From the sequence record KY794643.1: DNA of 64,000 nt; one strand, 5' to 3'. The stretch comes from Staphylococcus phage vB_Sau_S24. Under the pieces are notes generated by a model, which worked only from the letters and a program-made list of their open reading frames with translations, searched no databases and was not told the origin of the DNA. The translations under genes were made by a program, and so were the position numbers. Shown here piece by piece: positions 12,912 through 60,919 of the stretch; the first letter of the stretch is position 1; the number at the start of each line of letters is the position of its first letter.

Positions 12912-12988
12912 ATAAGTTTATAAATAACTGTTGACAGCAGGTATTTATTATAGTATACTTTAGATATAAAGAAAAAGGAGAGGTTAAC

Positions 12989-13192
12989 ATGAATAACAAA
13001 CAAATTGAAAGATTACACAGGAAATCAAATGAGGTAGTAAGTAAATCAGAAGGTATTGAAGACTTAGGTTATGTACAAGCACATAAGATTATTAAGGAGT
13101 ACCTTGATTTACCAGTGTCTGATTTTGAAAAGAGAGATGTAATGACTGAATTACTATTAGCGTTAGATAAAGCTAACAAAACATTAGACTAA
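12989..13192 (+). CDS. hypothetical protein
   Basis: RBS aaaaggagagg; promoter TTGACA-N17-TATACT at about 12931-12959. Confidence 0.45.
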   Translation: MNNKQIERLHRKSNEVVSKSEGIEDLGYVQAHKIIKEYLDLPVSDFEKRDVMTELLLALDKANKTLD

Positions 13193-13225: not shown

Positions 13226-13450
13226 ATGAATTATAAAGAGGTACTAGAAACTATTAAGAAGAATAAACCATGTAAGGTTAGATTTACTGGAAGTATTGTA
13301 GCAATTGTTAACACAGAATTTAATGCAGACACTGGTAAAGGTGTATTACAGATTGATGTATCAGATATCAATAGAGACGATTACATTAAGCTACAGCAGT
13401 ATTGCTTAGAAAGAGACGATTATACTGTAGCAGGTTCTATTTTATTTTAA
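13226..13450 (+). CDS. hypothetical protein
   Basis: RBS aaaggaggaaat. Confidence 0.4.
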   Translation: MNYKEVLETIKKNKPCKVRFTGSIVAIVNTEFNADTGKGVLQIDVSDINRDDYIKLQQYCLERDDYTVAGSILF

Positions 13451-13470
13451 AAAGGAAAGGAGTTAACACG

Positions 13471-14379
13471 ATGATTAAAGTATTTTCAGAAATTGATACA
13501 AAATATAAGACGATTGTACCGGAGAAATTCCCTAATGGTGAGATTAATTTTAAATACGATGACTTAGAATATTTAGTAGAAAAAGACCTACGGTTTGATG
13601 TTTTCTTTAAATGGGAAAGTGATGCGGACTTAATGCATTTGTATATGTTTACTAAGTATATAGAACAATTAGGTATTAAAGATAAAGCTGAGTTTTTAGA
13701 CATTGCATACGTACCTTATAGCAGAATGGATAGAGTAGAAGAAGGTCATAGTAATATGTTTAGTCTTAAGTATATTGCAGAGTTTATTAACAATCTTAAT
13801 TACAAATCGGTATGGGTAGCAGAGCCTCATAGCCCTGTAACAGAAGAATTACTTAAAAATTCTTTTGCTGTACATGTTACAATTAAACTATTAAACCAAT
13901 ATATTGAAATGTCTGAAGAACCTGTAACAATTGTACTACCTGATAAAGGAGCATATGATAGATACCTATTTGATGTAGAACGTATATTAATAGACTCTAA
14001 CATTGAAAATTATTCAATTGTATATGGTGAAAAGGAACGTGATTTTGAGACAGGTAAGATTAAAGGAATTAAAATAATTACAGATGAAAATACTGTATAC
14101 GATAACTGCATCATCCTAGATGATTTAACAAGTTATGGTGGGACTTTTGTAGGTTGTAAAAAAGCTCTTGACAAACTAGGTGTTAATAGTGTATCATTAA
14201 TATTGACTCATGCAGAGAAAATATTTATGGATGGTAAACTATTTGAATCAGGTTTTAAAGATATCGTTGTAACAGACTCAATGTTATCTGATAGCCCTTG
14301 GACAAAAGCTGTTGCTACCCATATAGCACAGGTAAATGGAACAGAATTACAAATAAAGGATATCGAAAGATATCTATAA
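13471..14379 (+). CDS. prs: ribose-phosphate pyrophosphokinase (PRPP synthetase)-like protein; candidate Adps of an NAD+ reconstitution pathway
   Basis: Prs-fold similarity with a phosphoribosyl-binding-type loop (…IILDDLTSYGGT…); start moved to the ATG after RBS aaaggaaaggag. Confidence 0.75.
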   Translation: MIKVFSEIDTKYKTIVPEKFPNGEINFKYDDLEYLVEKDLRFDVFFKWESDADLMHLYMFTKYIEQLGIKDKAEFLDIAYVPYSRMDRVEEGHSNMFSLKYIAEFINNLNYKSVWVAEPHSPVTEELLKNSFAVHVTIKLLNQYIEMSEEPVTIVLPDKGAYDRYLFDVERILIDSNIENYSIVYGEKERDFETGKIKGIKIITDENTVYDNCIILDDLTSYGGTFVGCKKALDKLGVNSVSLILTHAEKIFMDGKLFESGFKDIVVTDSMLSDSPWTKAVATHIAQVNGTELQIKDIERYL

Positions 14380-14396
14380 AAGGAGAAAAATAAACT

Positions 14397-15866
14397 ATGC
14401 TAAATCCAACATTAATGTGTGACTTCTACAAATTAAGTCACAGAGAACAATATCCTGAAGGTACAGAAATTGTATATAGTACACTTGTACCTAGAAGTAA
14501 CAAATATTATGAACATAGTGATAATATTGTAGTATTTGGTATTCAATCACTTGTTAAAAAGTATTTTATTGATATGTTTAATAGAGAATTTTTTAATAGA
14601 CCTAAAAAGGAAGTTATTAACGAATATAAACGTACAGTTAAATTCACATTAGGGCAAGAAAACCCTGACGCTAAACATTTAGAGCAGTTACATGACCTAG
14701 GCTACTTACCTATTGATGTAAGAGCTTTAAAAGAGGGTACAGTAGTTCACCCTAATACACCTGTTATGACAATAGAAAATACTCACTCAGATTTCTTTTG
14801 GCTAACTAACTACTTAGAAACTATTATTAGTACTCAAACATGGCAAGCAATGACAAGTGCTACACTAGCATATGATATGCGTAAAATGTTAGATAAATAT
14901 GCAATAGAAACGGTAGGTAGTATTGATGCAGTAGATTTCCAAGGACATGACTTTAGTATGCGTGGGATGAGTTCACTAGAAACAGCTCAATTAAGTTCAG
15001 CAGGACATGCAATTAGTTTTAAAGGTAGTGACACTGTACCTGTAGTGGAATTCCTAGAATCTTATTACAATGCAGATGTAGAAAAAGAAATGGTTGTTGC
15101 CTCTATCCCTGCTACTGAGCATTCAGTTATGTGTGCAAACGGTGATTATGAGACAATGGATGAATACGAAACATACAAACGTATGTTAACGGAAATCTAT
15201 CCAACAGGAGTATTCTCTATTGTATCTGATACTTGGGACTTTTGGGGTAATATGACTAAAACTTTACCTAGACTAAAAGATATTATTATGGAAAGAGACG
15301 GTAAAGTAGTAATCAGACCTGATAGTGGAGACCCTGTTAAGATTATCTGCGGTGACCCTGATGCAGATACTGAGCATGAACGTAAAGGTGCTGTAGAAGT
15401 ACTTTGGGACACTTTTGGAGGTACAGAAACTGAAAAAGGATATAAAGTACTAGATGAGCATGTAGGGCTAATTTACGGTGATTCTATTAACTATGAGCGT
15501 GCTCAACAAATTTGTGAGGGATTAAAAGAAAAGGGTTTTGCAAGTATTAACGTGGTATTAGGCGTAGGTAGTTTCTCTTATCAATTTAATACTCGTGATA
15601 CTCATGGATTTGCAATCAAAGCAACGTATGCTAAGATTAAAAATGAAGAGAAGCTTATCTATAAGAACCCTAAAACAGATAGCGGTAAACGTTCACACAA
15701 AGGTAGAGTAGCTGTTTACAAAGATGGCTCATGGGAAGATAACCTAAACCTTCACCAGTGGTTAAACAAACAGAATTTAAACCAATTAGAACGAGTATTT
15801 GAAGACGGTAAACTATATCGAGACCAGTCATTAAGTGAAATCAGAGAGATAATTAAAAATAATTAA
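14397..15866 (+). CDS. nadV: nicotinamide phosphoribosyltransferase (Nampt/NadV) family protein; candidate Namat
   Basis: 489 aa; Nampt-type N-terminus (NP.L..DFYKLSHREQYP) and overall Nampt-like length; RBS aaaggagaaaaat. Confidence 0.8.
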   Translation: MLNPTLMCDFYKLSHREQYPEGTEIVYSTLVPRSNKYYEHSDNIVVFGIQSLVKKYFIDMFNREFFNRPKKEVINEYKRTVKFTLGQENPDAKHLEQLHDLGYLPIDVRALKEGTVVHPNTPVMTIENTHSDFFWLTNYLETIISTQTWQAMTSATLAYDMRKMLDKYAIETVGSIDAVDFQGHDFSMRGMSSLETAQLSSAGHAISFKGSDTVPVVEFLESYYNADVEKEMVVASIPATEHSVMCANGDYETMDEYETYKRMLTEIYPTGVFSIVSDTWDFWGNMTKTLPRLKDIIMERDGKVVIRPDSGDPVKIICGDPDADTEHERKGAVEVLWDTFGGTETEKGYKVLDEHVGLIYGDSINYERAQQICEGLKEKGFASINVVLGVGSFSYQFNTRDTHGFAIKATYAKIKNEEKLIYKNPKTDSGKRSHKGRVAVYKDGSWEDNLNLHQWLNKQNLNQLERVFEDGKLYRDQSLSEIREIIKNN

Positions 15867-15880
15867 TAAATAGTTAAACT

Positions 15881-15913
15881 CCCTATTGACAAATAGGGGT
15901 TTCTATTATATAA
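15881..15913 (+). promoter_or_regulatory. Hairpin (CCCTATTGACAAATAGGGG) with TTGACA-N17-TATAAT consensus promoter embedded; doubles as terminator for the Nampt-like gene
   Basis: Inverted repeat plus exact -35/-10 hexamers at 17-nt spacing. Confidence 0.6.
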
Positions 15914-15944
15914 TATACCTATAATAAATAAGAGGAGGGTTAAT

Positions 15945-17843: not shown

Positions 17844-17880
17844 CATTAAATAAATAACGTGTTAAGATTAATATATAATC
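17840..17880 (+). promoter_or_regulatory. Conserved promoter box TTGACA-N17-(TG)TTAAGATTAATATATAAT (copy 1 of 4)
   Basis: Repeated at 20215, 23218, 24237. Confidence 0.5.
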
Positions 17881-17900
17881 AATTAAGGAGGAAAGTTAAC

Positions 17901-20174
17901 ATGAAACAATTAGTATTAATGAGAGGGGTGCCGGGAGCCGGAAAGTCTACTTTTATTAAAGAGAATGGGTTAGAACCTTACACTCTCTCCCCTGATGAAC
18001 TTAGAACAATGCATACAAGCCCTATATATAATGAGCAAGGAATGAAAGTTATATCTCAGAAACACGATAATAAAGTTTGGGATAACCTAATGGAAATTCT
18101 TGAAGAAAGAATGATTAATGGGGATTTTACTGTTATTGATGCTACGCACTCTACAGGAAAATTAATTAAAAAATATGAGACACTAGCTCGTAAATATCGT
18201 TATCGTACTTATGTAGTAACTATTGAGCAAGATTTAGACACATTAATTGAACGTAATAACCAAAGAAAAGAGTTAAAAAAGGTTCCTGAAGAAGTAATTT
18301 ACAATATTTATGAAAGGTTACAACATGAACATATCCCTAGTTATGCTACAGAAATTAGCTCAGATGAATTAATGGATAAGATTAAATGGAAAAAAGATTC
18401 CTTTGATGCCGATAATTATGATAAAATCCATGTTATTGGGGACGTTCATTCATGTTTTACAGTAATTAATCAGTTTGCAAGTTATCAAAAAATTATTGAT
18501 AATCCAAATGAGTTATTTATCTTTGTCGGGGACTACTTTGATAGAGGTTTAGAGACTAAAGAGGTGTTTGATTACTTAGAACTAATTTATAAACAACCTA
18601 ATGTAGTGTTGTTGGAAGGTAATCATGAGAGACACTTAAGACGATATGCCTTTTTAGATGAGGAAGATTATTTAAGTTTAGATTGTACAGATAAAGATTT
18701 CTATGATACTGCAATGAAATTATTCCATGCAAGAGGTTTTATTCCTACGCTTAAAGAATTCATGACATATGGAATTACTCAAAAACAAGTAAGACGTATT
18801 GTTCATAAATTACAGCAAATAGTATACTTCAATTATAAAGGGCAATACTATATGATTAATCATGGTGGTATCTTACCTAATATGTTAGATGACATTAACT
18901 TAGTATCAACTCACCAAATCATTAATGGCGTAGGTGGGTATGAATATCAAATTGATGAGCAATGGGATGACTCAGATGTTATTCAGATTCACGGTCACAG
19001 AAATCTTTATAGGGAGCCTTTAGATGTAACAAAACAATCTATTAATTTAGAGGGAAGAGTTGAAAAAGGAGGTTCTTTAAGAGCTGTAACGATTAATGAA
19101 GACAATACTTTAACGCCTTATGAAATTAAAAACGAAGTATATGATTCTAAATTTTTATTAAACAATGACTATACAGAAGATATTGACCCTAATCTAACAG
19201 TTGAAGATTATTTAAAACTAGCAAAAGAAGACCCCTATATTAAAGTCGTACCTCAATATGATAATGTAGTATCTGTAAACTTTACTAGAAAGGCTTTTAG
19301 CAGAAAGCATTGGAACCAATTATCTGTTACTGCTAGAGGATTATTTATTGATGAGAGTACAAATAAAATTGTTGGTAGAGGGTATAATAAATTCTTTAAT
19401 ATTAATGAAAGACCTGAAACAAAATTAGAAAATCTACCTGATACTTTAGAATTCCCTGTATATGCTTCATTAAAATATAATGGATTCTTGGGGTTAATGT
19501 TCTATGACAATAATCGTGATGAACTAATTTACGCTAGCAAATCGAAAACACATTTATCACAACATGATAATTCTTTTGCTCTATTATTTAAAGAAATTGT
19601 TGAAGAAACATGGACTACTGAACAAATTAAAAATACAAAAAAATATTTAAAAGAAACAAATAAAACACTTTTATTTGAAGTAATAGATAATATTAATGAC
19701 CCTCATATTATTGATGATGGAGATAAAAGAAGAGTAGTATTATTAGATGCTGTTGACAACACGCTTAAATTTAATAAACTAGTTGGAGAAGAGCTCATTT
19801 ATCTTGCAGTAAATGTGATTGGTATTGATAAAAATGTATCCACTTCTAATTTCTCTTTCTCTAATTGGAATGACTTATTTACTTTTTACCAAGACTTAGA
19901 AAAAGATAATTCTTTTGCAATAGAAGGGTTTGTGTTAGAAGACTCTAATGGGTTCATGTTAAAATATAAAACACCATATTACAATAATTGGAAATATATG
20001 AGAAGTTTAGTTGATTCATTATCAAAGGATAACTTACAAAGAAGACCTATTCAAGCAATCTTACAAAAAGATAAAACTCTTACAGACTTTTATTACTGGG
20101 CAAAACAACAAGACAAAGAATATTTAAAGAACGATATTATTACTTTAAGAAATGATTTCTACAAAGAATTATAA
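17901..20174 (+). CDS. pnkp: polynucleotide kinase-phosphatase / RNA ligase fusion (Pnkp-like RNA repair enzyme)
   Basis: N-terminal P-loop GVPGAGKST; central calcineurin-like phosphoesterase motifs GDVH…GDYFDRG…GNHE; C-terminal nucleotidyltransferase (ligase) motif I KYNG. The domain order matches bacterial Pnkp. Confidence 0.75.
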   Translation: MKQLVLMRGVPGAGKSTFIKENGLEPYTLSPDELRTMHTSPIYNEQGMKVISQKHDNKVWDNLMEILEERMINGDFTVIDATHSTGKLIKKYETLARKYRYRTYVVTIEQDLDTLIERNNQRKELKKVPEEVIYNIYERLQHEHIPSYATEISSDELMDKIKWKKDSFDADNYDKIHVIGDVHSCFTVINQFASYQKIIDNPNELFIFVGDYFDRGLETKEVFDYLELIYKQPNVVLLEGNHERHLRRYAFLDEEDYLSLDCTDKDFYDTAMKLFHARGFIPTLKEFMTYGITQKQVRRIVHKLQQIVYFNYKGQYYMINHGGILPNMLDDINLVSTHQIINGVGGYEYQIDEQWDDSDVIQIHGHRNLYREPLDVTKQSINLEGRVEKGGSLRAVTINEDNTLTPYEIKNEVYDSKFLLNNDYTEDIDPNLTVEDYLKLAKEDPYIKVVPQYDNVVSVNFTRKAFSRKHWNQLSVTARGLFIDESTNKIVGRGYNKFFNINERPETKLENLPDTLEFPVYASLKYNGFLGLMFYDNNRDELIYASKSKTHLSQHDNSFALLFKEIVEETWTTEQIKNTKKYLKETNKTLLFEVIDNINDPHIIDDGDKRRVVLLDAVDNTLKFNKLVGEELIYLAVNVIGIDKNVSTSNFSFSNWNDLFTFYQDLEKDNSFAIEGFVLEDSNGFMLKYKTPYYNNWKYMRSLVDSLSKDNLQRRPIQAILQKDKTLTDFYYWAKQQDKEYLKNDIITLRNDFYKEL

Positions 20175-21588: not shown

Positions 21589-22680
21589 ATGAGAAAGAAA
21601 TGGACTGATAAGGATTTTAAGTTTAACAGAGGTGATATTGTAAAAGGCGTAGAGATACTGGGGTATACGTATACAAAGTTTAATGATGAGAAATATAATA
21701 AAGCTTTTTGGGTAAAAAATATAAAAGAAAATATTGTTTTTAAGATAGAACAGAATGCTATAAAGAGAAGTAAGTCTACTAACTTACTACCAAAAGGTAA
21801 ACAAGCTAGGTTATTTAATACAGTAGCTAAGAAACGTCCTGACTTAATTCCTTTTATTGTTAATAAGGAAGACCTGCAACTTCAACCAGGCTCAAATAAA
21901 AAAGTTAAAGTAAGATGCCCTATCTGCAAGAAAATAAATGAAAAACCTATGATGGTTAATGATTTAGTACGAAGCGGTTTTAATTGTAAGGACTGTACTT
22001 TACATAAATCATTTCCCCAACAAGTCATAGAAGCTTATTTATCTTTGAATGATATAGAATATATTACTGAGTATCATATTAGACATAATAATAAAAATAG
22101 ATATATAGATATTATGATTCCTAGTAAAAATATAGCTATCGAAATTCACGGTTATCAACATTACAATGATGTCGTATATTGGAAAAACACGTTAGAGCAT
22201 CATGAAATATCTACAACAATAAAGAAACAATACTGTAAAACTCACAGTATAAAACTAATAGAGATTAATGCAAAAGAGTCTAAACTACCTTATATAAAAA
22301 GAAGTGTAAGGAGCACAGAACTATCTTATATTTTATCTATATCAGATACAGAGGTAATGCAATACGTTCAGACTAATAACTACATCTTAAGAGAAATGGT
22401 AGCTATGTATAAAGAAGGTCACACATTAAAAGAAATAGGCAATAAGTTTAATATGAGCAGTTCCGGTGTAGGTAAAAGAATGACTCAGTTAGGGTTAAAG
22501 TCACGAGGAAAAAGACCTGTTAAATGTATAACTACTGGAGAAGTATTTGAAAGTGTAAGAGAAGCTAGTAGATGGGCAGGGATAAAGAATAGCGGAAACA
22601 TCTGTAATAATATATCCGGGAGAAGTAAATACGCAGGAGAACATAGAGGGGAGAAACTACAATGGGAGTATGTTGACTAA
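21589..22680 (+). CDS. free-standing homing-endonuclease-like protein (PD-(D/E)XK-like core, HTH, C-terminal NUMOD1-like motif)
   Basis: IAIEIHGYQHY resembles the restriction-endonuclease-fold E-x-K/H signature; C-terminus VFESVREASRWAGIKNSGNICNNISGRSKYAGEHRGEKLQWEY fits the NUMOD1 consensus F.S..EAar.lGi..s.I…l.G..k.aGG..W.Y; followed by a 450-bp ORF-free region. Confidence 0.55.
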   Translation: MRKKWTDKDFKFNRGDIVKGVEILGYTYTKFNDEKYNKAFWVKNIKENIVFKIEQNAIKRSKSTNLLPKGKQARLFNTVAKKRPDLIPFIVNKEDLQLQPGSNKKVKVRCPICKKINEKPMMVNDLVRSGFNCKDCTLHKSFPQQVIEAYLSLNDIEYITEYHIRHNNKNRYIDIMIPSKNIAIEIHGYQHYNDVVYWKNTLEHHEISTTIKKQYCKTHSIKLIEINAKESKLPYIKRSVRSTELSYILSISDTEVMQYVQTNNYILREMVAMYKEGHTLKEIGNKFNMSSSGVGKRMTQLGLKSRGKRPVKCITTGEVFESVREASRWAGIKNSGNICNNISGRSKYAGEHRGEKLQWEYVD

Positions 22681-23275
22681 TAAGAAACAAATAAAAACAA
22701 ATCAAAACAAATCTAAGTACCTGGGAATTCTTTTACCTCTCCCACTCAGCCTATTACTTACTACCGACTTTCCTAACTACTTATTCTATAGTTATACTAT
22801 TCATTTATTATACAATAGTAAACTATAGTATTCTACCTGTAAACTATGCTGAAGAGGTAGTAATCTATTGTTATTATATAATAAACTTATCTAATGGTAT
22901 GTTAATCTATGATGTTACACAAATATAGAAAATAGCTTAAATTTAGAAAATATATAAAACTTTCCCTAGGGGAAAAGTATATACCTATGTACTATAAAGG
23001 CTGTAGGTATGAGATTCTATATTTTAGTATTCTTATGTTACACAAATATATCCGCTTCAATTACAATTAATTGTTGACGGATATGAAGCGGTATGTTATA
23101 CTTAGTATATAAAGTTAAGAGGAGGAGTTAATTATGACTAGAGAAGAAATGGAAATGGAACAAGCTAGACAAGACTACGTAACTGCAAAAACAATCAGAA
23201 ACTTTTAATCAAAAGTATTGACATTCAATAAGTAGTATGGTAAGATTAGTATATAATCAATTAGGAGGAGAAGTA

Positions 23276-32174: not shown

Positions 32175-32669
32175 TCAACCCTTTCCCTTAAATTCTTTTA
32201 AAATATATTTTACAGAGTCTAAACTTAAATTATATTCCTTTGCTAGCATTGGCATGGTATACTTATATGGTTTATACTTTTGTTGTATTTCTTTGATTTC
32301 TTTTTGTGTTGGTGCTTTACCTCTTTTGTATCTAAAATCATCAGTTTTATTGTGGTGTGTGGTGTGTTCTAATGGGCTAATACATTCTAGGTTATCAATA
32401 CAGTTATTTTGTTTATTACCGTCTATATGGTGGATATGGTAGTCTTTGTTGAAGTCTGTTCCAAAATACTCATATACAAGCCTATGCACTCTGATATTTC
32501 TTTTTGCTATCCTAACTGTTGAATACCCTTTTTTAGTTGCAGAATGTTTTAAAATACGCTCTTTTCCTTTGATGTTACTTTTAACAATACCATTACTAGA
32601 AACATAATATTTATTATTTTCATTAGATAATTTTTTTATAAGTTTCCAAATTTCTTTTATTTCTTTCAT
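32175..32669 (-). CDS. free-standing HNH homing endonuclease
   Basis: HNH motif HRLVYEYF…HIHHIDGNKQNNCIDNLECISPLEH; opposite strand inside a plus-strand block; RBS aggagg after revcomp. Confidence 0.8.
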   Translation of the reverse strand: MKEIKEIWKLIKKLSNENNKYYVSSNGIVKSNIKGKERILKHSATKKGYSTVRIAKRNIRVHRLVYEYFGTDFNKDYHIHHIDGNKQNNCIDNLECISPLEHTTHHNKTDDFRYKRGKAPTQKEIKEIQQKYKPYKYTMPMLAKEYNLSLDSVKYILKEFKGKG

Positions 32670-37576: not shown

Positions 37577-38071
37577 TTATTTAAACTTATTATATACGCA
37601 ATGGACTCTAACATCTTCCATTACTTTACCTAATAGATTCTGACCTTTCCAGTTGCTTTTATCTAATATCTTAGGGTCATTTGCTTTAAGTCCTACGCCC
37701 CATATTTTATCATAAGGTGATGCTTCTACGAAGTCTTTACATAAATCTGTATCGAGTATTTCCCGTTTTAAGTGTGTAGTCATAAATTTATCTTTAACCA
37801 CTTCTACCATAATGTCATATCTTACTTTATTCCATTGCTCTTCATTAAAATTACGAACTTTACGTCCTAAACTTTTAGCATGTTTCGGATTCTTAGCATT
37901 TAATATTTCTCCTGCTATTTGCCAGTCTCTGAAATATTGAGCTTTACGCCACATAAAAGCTTGTTCTGAATTATTAAATGTTCTTCCTTTATGTTTAAAC
38001 TTTATAGGGTAAAAGTTAGAGTAAATATCTTCCTGACCCCAAAACATAATGTATCTTTTAGTCTCTCTCAT
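37577..38071 (-). CDS. NADAR (YbiA-like, DUF1768) domain protein
   Basis: SNF…F.HKG..F.NSEQAFMWRKAQYF.D…EIL…P…K.LGRKV.NF…W…IM…KF…L..T….L.EASP.D.IWGVGL pattern typical of NADAR. Confidence 0.65.
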   Translation of the reverse strand: MRETKRYIMFWGQEDIYSNFYPIKFKHKGRTFNNSEQAFMWRKAQYFRDWQIAGEILNAKNPKHAKSLGRKVRNFNEEQWNKVRYDIMVEVVKDKFMTTHLKREILDTDLCKDFVEASPYDKIWGVGLKANDPKILDKSNWKGQNLLGKVMEDVRVHCVYNKFK

Positions 38072-38088: not shown

Positions 38089-38796
38089 CTAATCCCCCAA
38101 TTTAATAAGTGGTAAATCTATATCCCTAAATACAGCACCTACATCACATAACAACATATCATTATGTTCTTCTACTTCTCCGCTAATAGTGGGTGTGTGC
38201 CCGCATACGTGAATAAAGCCATCATTACGTGGTTGGAAATCTCTTGACCATAGTAGTTGGTATTTGGTTTGGTTTTTAGCAGGGTTCCAACTAACTCCAC
38301 CTGAATGCGTAAACTCATATTTATCTTGCTTATATATAACAGCACAGTTATGCATTAGTATTTTAAACTTTCTATAGTCTTCAGACTCTTTGAATTCCCT
38401 AATTTCTTCAACGAATTTATCGAAGTATTCTCTATAAAACTCATTTTGATTTAACTCAAAGCTCTTTAATGGTGTTGTGTCAATACCGTACGACTCTAGT
38501 GTTTCTATACAGTACCTTGCAAACCATTCAACATTATATATATCCAGTTTATCAATATTTTCTATACTATGCCAAAATGCATCATCATGATTTCCTAATA
38601 ACGGTATAATGTCATCATCGTTTGAGACTCTTTCAAAAACGTAATTAACTACCTCTCTAGATTTATCCCCTCTATCAATATAATCTCCTAAAAATACTAT
38701 AACATCTTCAGGTTGTCTTTCCTTGTCTATCTTATTCATAATTGTTATTAGTTTTTCATATTCTCCATGAATATCAGGTACTACGTATATAGCCAT
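38089..38796 (-). CDS. serine/threonine protein phosphatase (calcineurin-like metallophosphoesterase)
   Basis: Motifs DIHG, GDYIDRG, GNHD, HGG…GH. Confidence 0.8.
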   Translation of the reverse strand: MAIYVVPDIHGEYEKLITIMNKIDKERQPEDVIVFLGDYIDRGDKSREVVNYVFERVSNDDDIIPLLGNHDDAFWHSIENIDKLDIYNVEWFARYCIETLESYGIDTTPLKSFELNQNEFYREYFDKFVEEIREFKESEDYRKFKILMHNCAVIYKQDKYEFTHSGGVSWNPAKNQTKYQLLWSRDFQPRNDGFIHVCGHTPTISGEVEEHNDMLLCDVGAVFRDIDLPLIKLGD

Positions 38797-50487: not shown

Positions 50488-51066
50488 CTACCTCCTTGAG
50501 TAATAATTAGCCTGTAGATAACATATAAGTATAAGAACAAAGTTTACAAATTCAGTAGCTATAATGTGAACATAGGTATGTGATAAAACCATACTCGATA
50601 TCAATGAAGCTAATCCTAATCCAATAATAAGGAATAGAAATCTGTTTGTACCTTCTGCACTTTTAGTTTTATAGAATGTTGTTATCTGAGTTACATACGC
50701 AAGGATAATAGTAATAGTTGCTACAGTTTGTGTTAAAGCTGTAAAGTCACTTAATAAAAATAGTAACAATGAGAACACAATAATAAAAGGTATAGAGAAA
50801 TAATCCTTTTTTCTATATGAAGCTACTAGTAAGCAAACAATACCTAGAGTTAAATTAAGACCAACTGATACTACTTGAAACATTGAAGCATCAGTTAATA
50901 GTAAATTGTAAAAACTAATACCTACTGTAGCTACAATTAGATACCAAAAATAACTACTAACCCCTTTAACACTATCTGATTTAACTAAAGCTATTAGACC
51001 TGGTATATAACCTACTGTAACTAATATAGCATATAATATACTCAAGTAATGTGATAAATTATCCAT
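50488..51066 (-). CDS. polytopic membrane protein
   Basis: About 6 hydrophobic helices. Confidence 0.55.
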   Translation of the reverse strand: MDNLSHYLSILYAILVTVGYIPGLIALVKSDSVKGVSSYFWYLIVATVGISFYNLLLTDASMFQVVSVGLNLTLGIVCLLVASYRKKDYFSIPFIIVFSLLLFLLSDFTALTQTVATITIILAYVTQITTFYKTKSAEGTNRFLFLIIGLGLASLISSMVLSHTYVHIIATEFVNFVLILICYLQANYYSRR

Positions 51067-51685
51067 CTTGTTCTCCTAACTTCTCTAATCTGTTAAGGAC
51101 TTCTTCCCAAGAGATAAACCCTTCTCCGTCTGTTAATTCTAAAACCATACCATATACAAATTGATTTGTACTAAACTCAGCTCTATCAGGGTCATCATAA
51201 CCTTTTCCATGTCCTTGTCGAATATCCGAGCAATAAATTAAAACAGGTTTATTTACAATATTTTCAAGTTTTTCTACGATTAATTCCTCTTCTTCACTTA
51301 ACCAAGTTTCAAATCTATCTGATATATAATTAAAGTGTTCTTCTCCATTATCGTATATATGGTTAATTGTTTCTTGTGCTTGATGTTTCATACCCAATAG
51401 AATACCTAGTTCTGCAATTGTTCCTAGTCCTTCGTTAAGAATGTCAAATACAAAAATATCTGACTCTTGCATAGCTTTAAAATCATTGTTTAAAATACGT
51501 TCCGCTAACTTAGTTTGTTCTGCGTTAGCTTTGTCATTAATTGATTTATCTTTGTGAGGGCTGTAAGGAGTTACTCCTACAATACCTTCTACTTGTTTAT
51601 GTTGTTTGTCTCTATAATCTACCATTGCGTCATTAAGTAGGTGACCTCCCATGTAGATTACTTTATCTTTAATATAATTAGTCAT
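51059..51685 (-). CDS. nucleoside 2-deoxyribosyltransferase family protein
   Basis: Ndt-like motifs (…GIVGVTPYSP…DIFVFDILNEGLGTIAELGILLG…). Confidence 0.6.
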   Translation of the reverse strand: MTNYIKDKVIYMGGHLLNDAMVDYRDKQHKQVEGIVGVTPYSPHKDKSINDKANAEQTKLAERILNNDFKAMQESDIFVFDILNEGLGTIAELGILLGMKHQAQETINHIYDNGEEHFNYISDRFETWLSEEEELIVEKLENIVNKPVLIYCSDIRQGHGKGYDDPDRAEFSTNQFVYGMVLELTDGEGFISWEEVLNRLEKLGEQDG

Positions 51686-59694: not shown

Positions 59695-59734
59695 TTATAT
59701 CTCTCCTTTTAAATATGTAAAGTATATTAGTTTA

Positions 59735-59808
59735 CGACTCATACGAGACTCGAACTCGTACTCTCTGCCGTGACAGGGCAGTGTGTTAACCAGTTACACC
59801 AATGAGCC
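59735..59808 (-). tRNA. tRNA-Asp (anticodon GTC)
   Basis: Revcomp GGCTCAT…CTGCC-CTGTCAC-GGCAG…GAGTTCGAGTCTCGT-ATGAGTC-G; acceptor, anticodon and T arms all fold. Confidence 0.75.
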
Positions 59809-60919
59809 AAAATAAATGCTATACCCTAACCTTACCTTAATGTATAGCAGGTTTTCTCTTAGGTTCGAAGCAACGATTATTACCACTCATAACAACTATA
59901 TTTTAAGTGAAAGGAGGTGAAATGAACAAAGCGTGGTAATTGGTACCTAAGAAGGAAATATGTATAATCTACAGGGAGGGAGATATTCGTTTTTAAAGGA
60001 GTGTGAATAATCTAAAACATGAAAGAATGAAATTAAACTCCCTGTAGATTCTTTTAATTATCAATCAAAGGAGGAAACTGATAATTGTTAATAATAAACT
60101 ATAAAGAGGAAAATATTTATAGTCACATTCTGATATAATGCAACTAAACATCCAAGCATAACCCTTCTCACAGGGAACGTATGTATAAGACCTGTTATTA
60201 AGTGAATCACTACGATTGACTCTATTAAGGAGCTACCTTAAGTCCATCTCACGCAATCTAGTAGGGACTTACAAACCATTAACGGTCATAAGTTTAATAG
60301 ATAATGTGATATTAACATATTAGTTAATAACTTTCACACGGTATGAAGAATTAAATTATGTGGATATCATTATTTTTTTTCCAACATACCAAATATTTTT
60401 TAGTTCTGTAGATTTGTGCTACTTATACTGAGAACCTCTATTATCAAACACATTTCTGTGCTCCAACTACAGTTAGTCTTTACAGCGTATCTTTATAGGA
60501 TTCCGCTAAGACCCTATAAAGAAGTTAAACCCTAGTCGTTCTCATACTCTACAGACCTTATACACAAGTACCAAGTATACCAATCATATCTAACGATACT
60601 AATGACGACCTATCCTACCGATTGACTAAACCGATAAGTTTTAGTTCGTTTGATTATCTTGTACCTTATAGCTACCAAACTATTGTTCAGTCACTATGCT
60701 CAGATGTTTAGTTGTATTATTTATATATTAAGTATAACATAATGTATATTATTTGTCAAGTTAAATTAATAAAAAATTTTAAAAAAACATTGTTATTGTT
60801 TGAACTGGAAAACAATGTTAGAAAAAACAGTGATGTGTAAGGTATTTGTTTTATTGTTAATTACATTATAGCATATACTGATACCTTTGTCAAGTTAATT
60901 TAATACTTTTTTAAAAATA

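Follow-up and report, generated by a model that had tools for sequence, protein, structure and literature searches.

A probable NARP1 operon for the reconstitution of NAD+ in a Twortvirinae phage of Staphylococcus

Do two adjacent genes of Staphylococcus phage vB_Sau_S24 (KY794643.1), whose products resemble a phosphoribosyl pyrophosphate (PRPP) synthetase (Prs) and a nicotinamide phosphoribosyltransferase (Nampt), serve the classical salvage of nicotinamide, or do they encode the NAD+ reconstitution pathway 1 (NARP1), in which NAD+ is rebuilt from ADP-ribose (ADPR)? The stretch of DNA that was analysed, hereafter called the window, comprises 64 kb of this Twortvirinae phage and is rich in AT (GC content about 30%); all positions given below are those of the whole window. 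At the locus, the DNA is 98.8% identical to that of Staphylococcus phage vB_Sau_Clo6 (Herelleviridae, Twortvirinae) and 90-96% identical to that of many other staphylococcal Twort-like phages, with 227 matching phage records in total. The original prediction, which was made from the sequence of the window, had placed a Prs-like and a Nampt-like gene side by side in the same orientation. Both genes are indeed present on the plus strand, and their homologies go far beyond chance. Judged from sequence comparisons, the pair is, with a probability of about 0.85, a NARP1 operon consisting of the genes adps and namat, which would encode an ADP-ribose pyrophosphokinase and a nicotinamide ADP-ribose transferase, respectively.

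According to this reading, a host NADase effector such as ThsA of type I Thoeris, or an effector of the SIR2 or DSR type, would split NAD+ into ADPR and nicotinamide. The 302-amino acid (aa) protein Adps would then take the beta,gamma-pyrophosphate from ATP and attach it to the terminal ribose of ADPR, yielding ADPR pyrophosphate (ADPR-PP) and AMP, and the 489-aa protein Namat would swap the pyrophosphate for nicotinamide, yielding NAD+ and pyrophosphate (PPi). NAD+ would be back in two steps that need neither nicotinamide mononucleotide (NMN) as an intermediate nor an NMN adenylyltransferase (NMNAT), and the phage could replicate despite NAD+-depleting immunity. Both reactions and the counter-defence phenotype have been demonstrated for other phages, namely SPbetaL1, Bas63, Fado and ICP1. 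By analogy, we infer that the enzymes of the present phage catalyse the same reactions and counter staphylococcal defences. A relevant target occurs in the host genus because a staphylococcal type I Thoeris system with an NAD+-depleting ThsA exists (PMC12578639); Twort-like phages and NARP are not mentioned in that study.

The two genes are direct neighbours, are co-oriented and are separated by a spacer of 17 nt (Table 1). Each of them is preceded by an AAGGAG ribosome-binding site (RBS) that can be read directly in the sequence. The first open reading frame (ORF1, adps) is mechanically listed at 13402..14379 with a TTG start codon, but the first ATG at position 13471 is the preferred start because it is this codon that the AAGGAG motif precedes. 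The gene was thus correctly recognised in the original prediction, whereas the length of 303 aa stated there counts the stop codon. Of the proteins of the Adps clade, 97% have a Namat neighbour, and bacterial prs genes almost never do (Osterman et al.). In the pairing criterion, an Adps-clade gene with a PRPS-like product has a namat gene within 10 genes; here, namat (ORF2) directly follows adps.

The original prediction suggested comparing the two proteins with profiles for Prs and Adps and for Nampt and Namat, and in both comparisons the proteins fall on the Adps/Namat side. For ORF2, Pfam reports the domains NAPRTase (PF04095; 3.6e-46) and NAMPT_N (PF18127; 9.2e-10), the score on the NCBIfam model NF006629 is 561.7 bits (cut-off 405), and PHROG 448 is matched with 2.3e-217. 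The top relatives with a solved structure are PDB 9W5X and 9W5W (E = 3.5e-198; 662 bits), which represent the Namat of phage SPbetaL1 with nicotinamide and NAD+ bound (depositors' paper). The printed alignment of both proteins yields 60.7% identity across 478 aligned residues. While the chain of 9KE8 still scores 528 bits, the best Nampt chain that is not a Namat (6tac) reaches only about 228 bits, and the remaining Nampt chains in the list score lower. What distinguishes Namat from Nampt is a "selectivity clamp", which packs against the adenine of ADPR-PP by stacking, and the clamp helix follows the consensus GS-X-phi1-X-phi2-X-phi3-TRD with aromatic residues at X, which is absent from Nampt (SPbetaL1 Namat structure paper). 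This consensus is present in ORF2 as GSFSYQFNTRD (aa 391-401), in which F393 and F397 are the aligned counterparts of F392 and Y396, the residues that stack on adenine in the SPbetaL1 enzyme. The clamp loop is variable and contains either an Arg or a Lys/Tyr that is followed by a stacking residue (SPbetaL1 Namat structure paper). In the alignment, K36 of ORF2 corresponds to R40 of the SPbetaL1 protein and is followed by Y37 and Y38, which matches the arrangement of a Lys plus a stacking residue. Moreover, the catalytic Arg is kept (R307 in ORF2, R306 in SPbetaL1). The Nampt of Caulobacter phage CcrSC, which is listed in the same supplementary table as Nmnat-associated, reads GGGMATADMDRD at the clamp-helix site and has no aromatic residues. 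Taken together, the comparisons support the view that ORF2 is a Namat, which would use ADPR-PP, rather than an ordinary Nampt.

No Pfam family, including Pribosyltran_N and Pribosyl_synth, matches ORF1 at E <= 0.01, and all 10 NCBIfam Prs models in its match list remain under their cut-offs, the best one being TIGR01251 with 78.1 bits (cut-off 113). PHROG 619, which is labelled "ribose-phosphate pyrophosphokinase", is matched with 2.7e-87. Supplementary Table 1 of the paper in which NARP1 was discovered (Osterman et al.) supplied Adps sequences for reference. The nearest characterised relative of ORF1 is the SPbetaL1 Adps (146 bits; 42% local identity), and the Adps proteins from phages of Gram-negative bacteria (KN2, a Pseudomonas phage, ICP1 and Bas63) score 54-84 bits. 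The best solved Prs, the PRPP synthase of S. solfataricus (4twb), reaches 66 bits (2.5e-17) and the Prs of E. coli 20 bits (18% identity). The SPbetaL1 enzyme converts ADPR and ATP to ADPR-PP and gave no measurable product in the Prs-type control assay (Osterman et al.). Both proteins of the window are orthologous to validated enzymes, and the conserved residues fit this relationship. K188 of ORF1, the catalytic Lys of the beta-hairpin in the motif K-E-R-D-F-E-T-G-K-I, aligns with K162 of the SPbetaL1 Adps and K185 of the ICP1 Adps, and the variant DDL(T/S)S(Y/F)GGTF of the PP loop is common to ORF1 and the SPbetaL1 protein. The Adps of the structures published in 2026 is UniProt F1D1Q1, whose numbering (F18, D212, D213, I214, D216, A218-S220) matches the ICP1 Adps sequence from the discovery table. 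Relative to ICP1, the residues F18 (F20 in ORF1), R87 (R85), H121 (H120), D161 (D158), K185 and D212/D213 (D217/D218) are kept. Furthermore, ORF1 scores 164 bits on a profile built from 6 non-staphylococcal Adps sequences, on which the E. coli Prs reaches 115 bits, compared with 78 bits on the Prs model TIGR01251. These data support the grouping of ORF1 with the Adps proteins of phages and not with the Prs enzymes of cells, and the assignment is mainly based on the SPbetaL1 ortholog, the Namat partner and the published analysis.

A route via NMN would require an NMNAT, and the original prediction held that none is encoded in the 64 kb. This statement was borne out by all approaches that were used. 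Pfam domains of the cytidylyltransferase-like (CTP_transf_like), Nudix, Macro and RyR families were found neither in 64 greedily selected, non-overlapping ORFs of the window with at least 100 aa nor in the ten ORFs nearest to the pair. The NMNAT motifs GxFxPxHxGH and ISSTxxR are absent from all six frames of the window; the first motif is present in both control NMNATs and the second one also in that of Enterococcus phage EFDG1. Searches of the window with tblastn and phmmer, using E. coli NadR and the EFDG1 NMNAT as queries, returned only noise (E > 0.5), and the same was true for positions 1-113702 of Clo6. The remaining part of the Clo6 genome (113703-143734) is colinear by gene content with the region from 36 to 64 kb of the window, which was scanned directly, and no NMNAT is found among the 214 annotated Clo6 features. 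When 50,697 phage records were searched with NadR by tblastn, 773 records matched; the ten organisms with the most matches, of which the tenth accounted for 10 records, did not include Staphylococcus. NARP2, which depends on an NMNAT, was rejected for this locus because Pfam, tblastn, phmmer and motif searches of the window and of Clo6 1-113702 gave no NMNAT. Extended NARP1 variants with the Macro-domain phosphatase Adpp or with RyDEP were rejected as well, since Pfam reported neither a Macro nor a RyR domain (PF02026) for the selected ORFs of at least 100 aa or for the small flanking ORFs. A separate observation concerns phage EFDG1, which belongs to the sister subfamily Brockvirinae of the Herelleviridae. 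Its genome (NC_029009.1, 28751-37806) contains a gene for a NadR-like NMNAT between two genes for PnuC-like transporters, and its strategy of NAD+ supply differs from the NARP1 of staphylococcal and Listeria phages.

Several points weigh against the assignment of the pair to NARP1. No paper was found that tests NARP1 in staphylococcal phages, be it with purified enzymes or by infection. Moreover, Namat enzymes retain the PRPP-dependent synthesis of NMN in vitro (PMC12774641), and some classical Nampt chemistry is possible. On the side of Adps, two residues of the acceptor groove of the ICP1 enzyme are altered in ORF1 (D216 to S221 and F92 to E90). However, the validated SPbetaL1 Adps has the same two substitutions (S195 and E74), which therefore appear to mark the Gram-positive branch rather than a loss of function. 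ORF1 is also closer to the S. solfataricus PRPP synthase than to the Adps of ICP1 (58 bits) or Bas63 (54 bits). The home-made Adps profiles are small (5-6 sequences from the discovery-paper table), and the E. coli Prs scores 108-115 bits on them compared with 120-164 bits for ORF1. With a gap of only 12-49 bits, these profiles were downgraded to weak support for discriminating Adps from Prs. The hairpin motif K-x-R-D/N-x-x-T-G-x-I was dropped as an Adps-specific feature because it also occurs in the Prs of S. solfataricus (KERDRTTGEV). The tail of ORF1 that follows the TDS motif has a length of about 29 aa, in comparison to 14-24 aa in other Adps proteins and 41 aa in the E. coli Prs, and the final segment of Prs resembling NEESISAMFEH is missing; the loss of the C-terminal alpha11-alpha12 module, a proposed signature of Adps, is not clear-cut in ORF1. 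Overall, the sequences separate distant Adps from Prs only to a moderate degree.

How do other explanations compare? If ORF2 were a true Nampt and ORF1 a genuine PRPP synthase, belonging to the unregulated class III known from archaea, the phage would produce NMN from ribose-5-phosphate, ATP and nicotinamide, and a host adenylyltransferase would finish the synthesis of NAD+. More than 200 phage records give both genes these annotations, ORF1 can be aligned with genuine Prs structures (4twb and, with 1.2e-7, 1u9y) and retains the catalytic Lys as well as the ribose-binding aspartates of Prs, and the score of ORF2 above the cut-off of NF006629 and the PRPP-dependent activity of Namat enzymes are what this explanation would lead one to expect. 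However, the Prs models exclude ORF1 by their own cut-offs, no Pfam family recognises it, and its nearest characterised relative makes ADPR-PP and gave no measurable product in the Prs-type control. Moreover, the aromatic residues of the adenine clamp are present in ORF2, while Nampt lacks them, and neither the window nor positions 1-113702 of Clo6 yielded a phage-encoded NMNAT. The host NadD, in turn, prefers nicotinate mononucleotide. With ORF1 below threshold on all Prs models, the clamp motif present and no NMNAT found in these searched sequences, the canonical combination of Prs and Nampt was rejected as highly improbable.

The chemistry of NARP1 could also be real but serve a housekeeping function in this phage, namely the recycling of ADPR and the supply of NAD+ for phage metabolism. 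Such a role has been proposed for NARP1 homologues that are found in non-mobile regions of bacterial chromosomes (PMC11724313, PMC12774641). The pair is almost universal among staphylococcal Twortvirinae (196 records), which agrees equally well with a core metabolic and with an accessory function, and its neighbours in Listeria phage LMTA-57 are genes for ribonucleotide reductase and thioredoxin. However, the gain or loss of NARP1 in Bas63, Fado and, with the SPbetaL1 operon, SBSphiJ changed the outcome of infection only on hosts with NAD+-depleting defences, and ADPR builds up mainly when NADases are active. A housekeeping function in place of counter-defence is thus unlikely; yet the two roles are not mutually exclusive, and housekeeping is compatible with the NARP1 operon proposed here. 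A further idea concerns the substrate: the Adps branch of the staphylococcal and Bacillus type could differ in its acceptor range and use, for instance, modified ADP-ribose, because a Ser replaces the ribose-contacting Asp216 and because the SYGGT PP loop, an insertion of 11 residues and a longer C-terminal tail distinguish this branch from the ICP1 enzyme. Separately, the two small ORFs upstream of adps (Table 1), which appear to use the same promoter, could be added counter-defence factors that work together with NARP1. Both suggestions are very unlikely.

The preferred reading, a NARP1 operon, is supported and concerns a system that is already known. NARP1 was described in 2024, crystal and cryo-EM structures exist, and AntiDefenseFinder includes the pathway as a two-gene model (PMC11724313). 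Indeed, ORF1 matches KY794642_00110 of Clo6 with 100% identity, so that the exact Adps sequence stands in Table S1 of the discovery paper, where it is flagged "Namat within 10 genes: Yes", and the Nampt-family partner in Clo6 is classified as "Adps-associated" in Table S2 (Osterman et al.). Phage K, S25-3, phiSA12, G1 and many other staphylococcal phages also appear in these tables, and NARP1 has been detected in 859 phage genomes (4.3%) (Osterman et al.). Homologues of adps were found in 196 Staphylococcus phage records. In Kayvirus P108, extra small ORFs occur in the flanks, while the genes of 909 nt and 1470 nt and the spacer are unchanged. The LMTA-57 pair has the neighbours mentioned above, and the unclassified Alicyclobacillus phage KKP_3916 carries two adjacent unannotated genes of the same sizes and in the same order in another context. 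Thus, adps and namat travel as a unit, whereas their neighbours do not.

The sole addition to the known record is an intein polymorphism in Namat. The namat gene of Clo6 holds an intein of 307 aa, which starts with Cys, ends with Asn (...CGN) and is followed by Ser as the +1 residue (22324-23248 of the Clo6 locus). Its insertion site, IRPD|SGDP, lies two residues past the catalytic Arg and beside the active site. The allele of the window is free of the intein, and the matching site lies at 15322-15327 (codons 309/310). Since the Clo6 allele has the intein and the window allele does not, the region of the Namat active site can be regarded, from the sequences, as a homing site whose occupancy varies between phages that are otherwise nearly identical. 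Elsewhere in the window, an ORF at 32175-32669 on the minus strand, which lies within a block of plus-strand genes, has HNH_3 and NUMOD4 domains and is likely to encode a free-standing homing endonuclease; the alignment with Clo6 is broken nearby.

Table 1. Genes and predicted expression signals at the adps-namat locus (positions in the window)
Feature	Position	Strand	Description
Candidate sigma-70-like promoter	12931..12959	+	TTGACA-17-TATACT, 11/12 matches; closest strong promoter-like sequence 5' of adps and namat
67-aa ORF (orf67)	12989..13192	+	PHROG 7235, function unassigned; also in Clo6
74-aa ORF (orf74)	13226..13450	+	PHROG 7618, function unassigned
RBS of adps	13457..13462	+	AAGGAG, 8 nt 5' of ATG
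adps (ORF1)	13471..14379	+	302 aa, PRPS-like fold, putative ADP-ribose pyrophosphokinase; predicted reaction ADPR + ATP -> ADPR-PP + AMP
RBS of namat	14380..14385	+	AAGGAG, 11 nt 5' of ATG
namat (ORF2)	14397..15866	+	489 aa, Nampt family, putative nicotinamide ADP-ribose transferase; predicted reaction ADPR-PP + nicotinamide -> NAD+ + PPi
Terminator-like hairpin with T-rich tail	15880..15899	+	14 nt past the namat stop codon

The signals around the pair suggest a transcription unit orf67-orf74-ORF1-ORF2 (Table 1). The hairpin downstream of namat has a fold energy of -14 kcal/mol (z = -3.2), and none of 200 shuffled sequences was as stable. The -35 box of the promoter of the next gene, a 12/12 match to the consensus at 15886-15914, overlaps this hairpin. 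Promoter-like sites are not enriched in the region, with 22 sites compared with 24.2 +/- 5.0 in shuffled sequence, and the layout is therefore only suggested, namely by the fact that the 11/12 and 12/12 matches fall into gaps between genes. The ORFs of 67 and 74 aa may be co-transcribed with adps and namat. Because the pair is constant while its neighbours vary, they are probably not part of the core of the NARP1 pathway. Many small genes of unassigned function surround the pair, in agreement with the original description of the region as dense with accessory genes.

Additional genes of the window deserve mention. At 37577-38071 (minus strand), a NADAR-domain protein of 164 aa is encoded (PF08719; 8e-37), and its gene adjoins one for a calcineurin-like Ser/Thr phosphatase (38089-38796, minus strand). 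NADAR enzymes reverse the ADP-ribosylation of guanine by DarT-type toxins, and the gene may be a second ADP-ribose-related counter-defence gene of this phage. Two kb 3' of the pair, the ORF at 17859-20174 (plus strand) encodes a fusion protein of 771 aa, in which an AAA_33 kinase, a metallophosphatase and a T4-type RNA ligase 1 domain are combined; its counterpart in Clo6 is annotated only as "RNA ligase". The domain composition suggests an RNA repair enzyme, possibly one that counters tRNA-cleaving defences. A multi-pass membrane protein of 192 aa (50488-51066, minus strand; PHROG 2642, no Pfam match) has no assigned function, and its gene shares 8 nt with the start of one for a nucleoside 2-deoxyribosyltransferase (51059-51685, minus strand), suggesting a pair for the uptake and salvage of nucleosides. 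A lone tRNA-Asp gene (GTC) is located at 59734-59809 on the minus strand, 3' of the genes for holin and endolysin, and Clo6 has a tRNA-Asp gene at the equivalent position.

As a discovery, the present finding carries little weight, given that NARP1 and the exact Adps sequence have been published. It is of practical value because phage therapy of S. aureus relies mainly on the Twortvirinae, the phages resembling phage K, and the genes still bear the names "ribose-phosphate pyrophosphokinase" and "nicotinamide phosphoribosyltransferase" in most database records. If the genes are re-annotated as adps and namat, these phages are predicted to withstand NAD+ depletion of the Thoeris, SIR2 and DSR types. 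They are also predicted to remain exposed to cleavage of the aRES type: following the logic of the aRES preprint, the plain NARP1 of the window should not rescue NAD+ that has been cleaved to ADPR-1''-phosphate because the phosphatase Adpp is lacking.

How does the locus compare with known systems? Canonical Prs enzymes such as E. coli b1207 and that of S. solfataricus (4TWB) share the fold and the catalytic Lys, His and Asp residues with ORF1. However, the identity of ORF1 to the E. coli enzyme is low, its scores reach none of the curated Prs cut-offs, the RF and regulatory regions cannot be aligned, and the PP loop reads SYGGT in ORF1 and DTGGT in Prs. NARP2 of Vibrio phage KVP40, which is composed of a Nampt and a bifunctional Nmnat, resembles the locus in that an enzyme of the Nampt family rebuilds NAD+ against NAD+-depleting defences. 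It proceeds via PRPP and NMN and needs an NMNAT, whereas the Nampt-family protein of the window has a clamp for ADPR-PP. The core of Adps and Namat is shared with NARP1-AP, which contains the Macro-domain phosphatase Adpp, and with NARP1 loci that include RyDEP, a RyR-domain glycosidase for cyclic ADPR, but neither of the additional domains was detected in the selected ORFs of at least 100 aa of the window or in the small flanking ORFs.

The NARP1 of Bacillus phage SPbetaL1 (Adps WIT26982.1 together with the Namat of PDB 9W5X/9W5W) is much more similar. Its enzymes have been assayed, while those of the window are known from sequence, and the host genus and the genomic context differ. Further differences are the Lys-Tyr of the clamp loop in place of Arg40, a Phe instead of a Tyr as the last aromatic residue of the clamp helix, an insertion of 11 residues after the PDxGA motif of Adps and a slightly longer C-terminal tail of this protein. 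The order and orientation of the genes are the same, as are the clamp-helix motif and the catalytic Arg of Namat, the catalytic Lys of Adps and its PP loop of the Gram-positive type. Closest of all are the NARP1 loci of other Twortvirinae, namely Clo6, phage K, P108 and Stab22 (Osterman et al., Tables S1 and S2). The namat gene of Clo6 is split by its intein, in contrast to the allele of the window, and the flanks of P108 contain their extra small ORFs. The spacer and the gene order are the same in these phages, and the Adps of the window, which does not differ from the Clo6 protein, shares 84% identity with its phage K counterpart.

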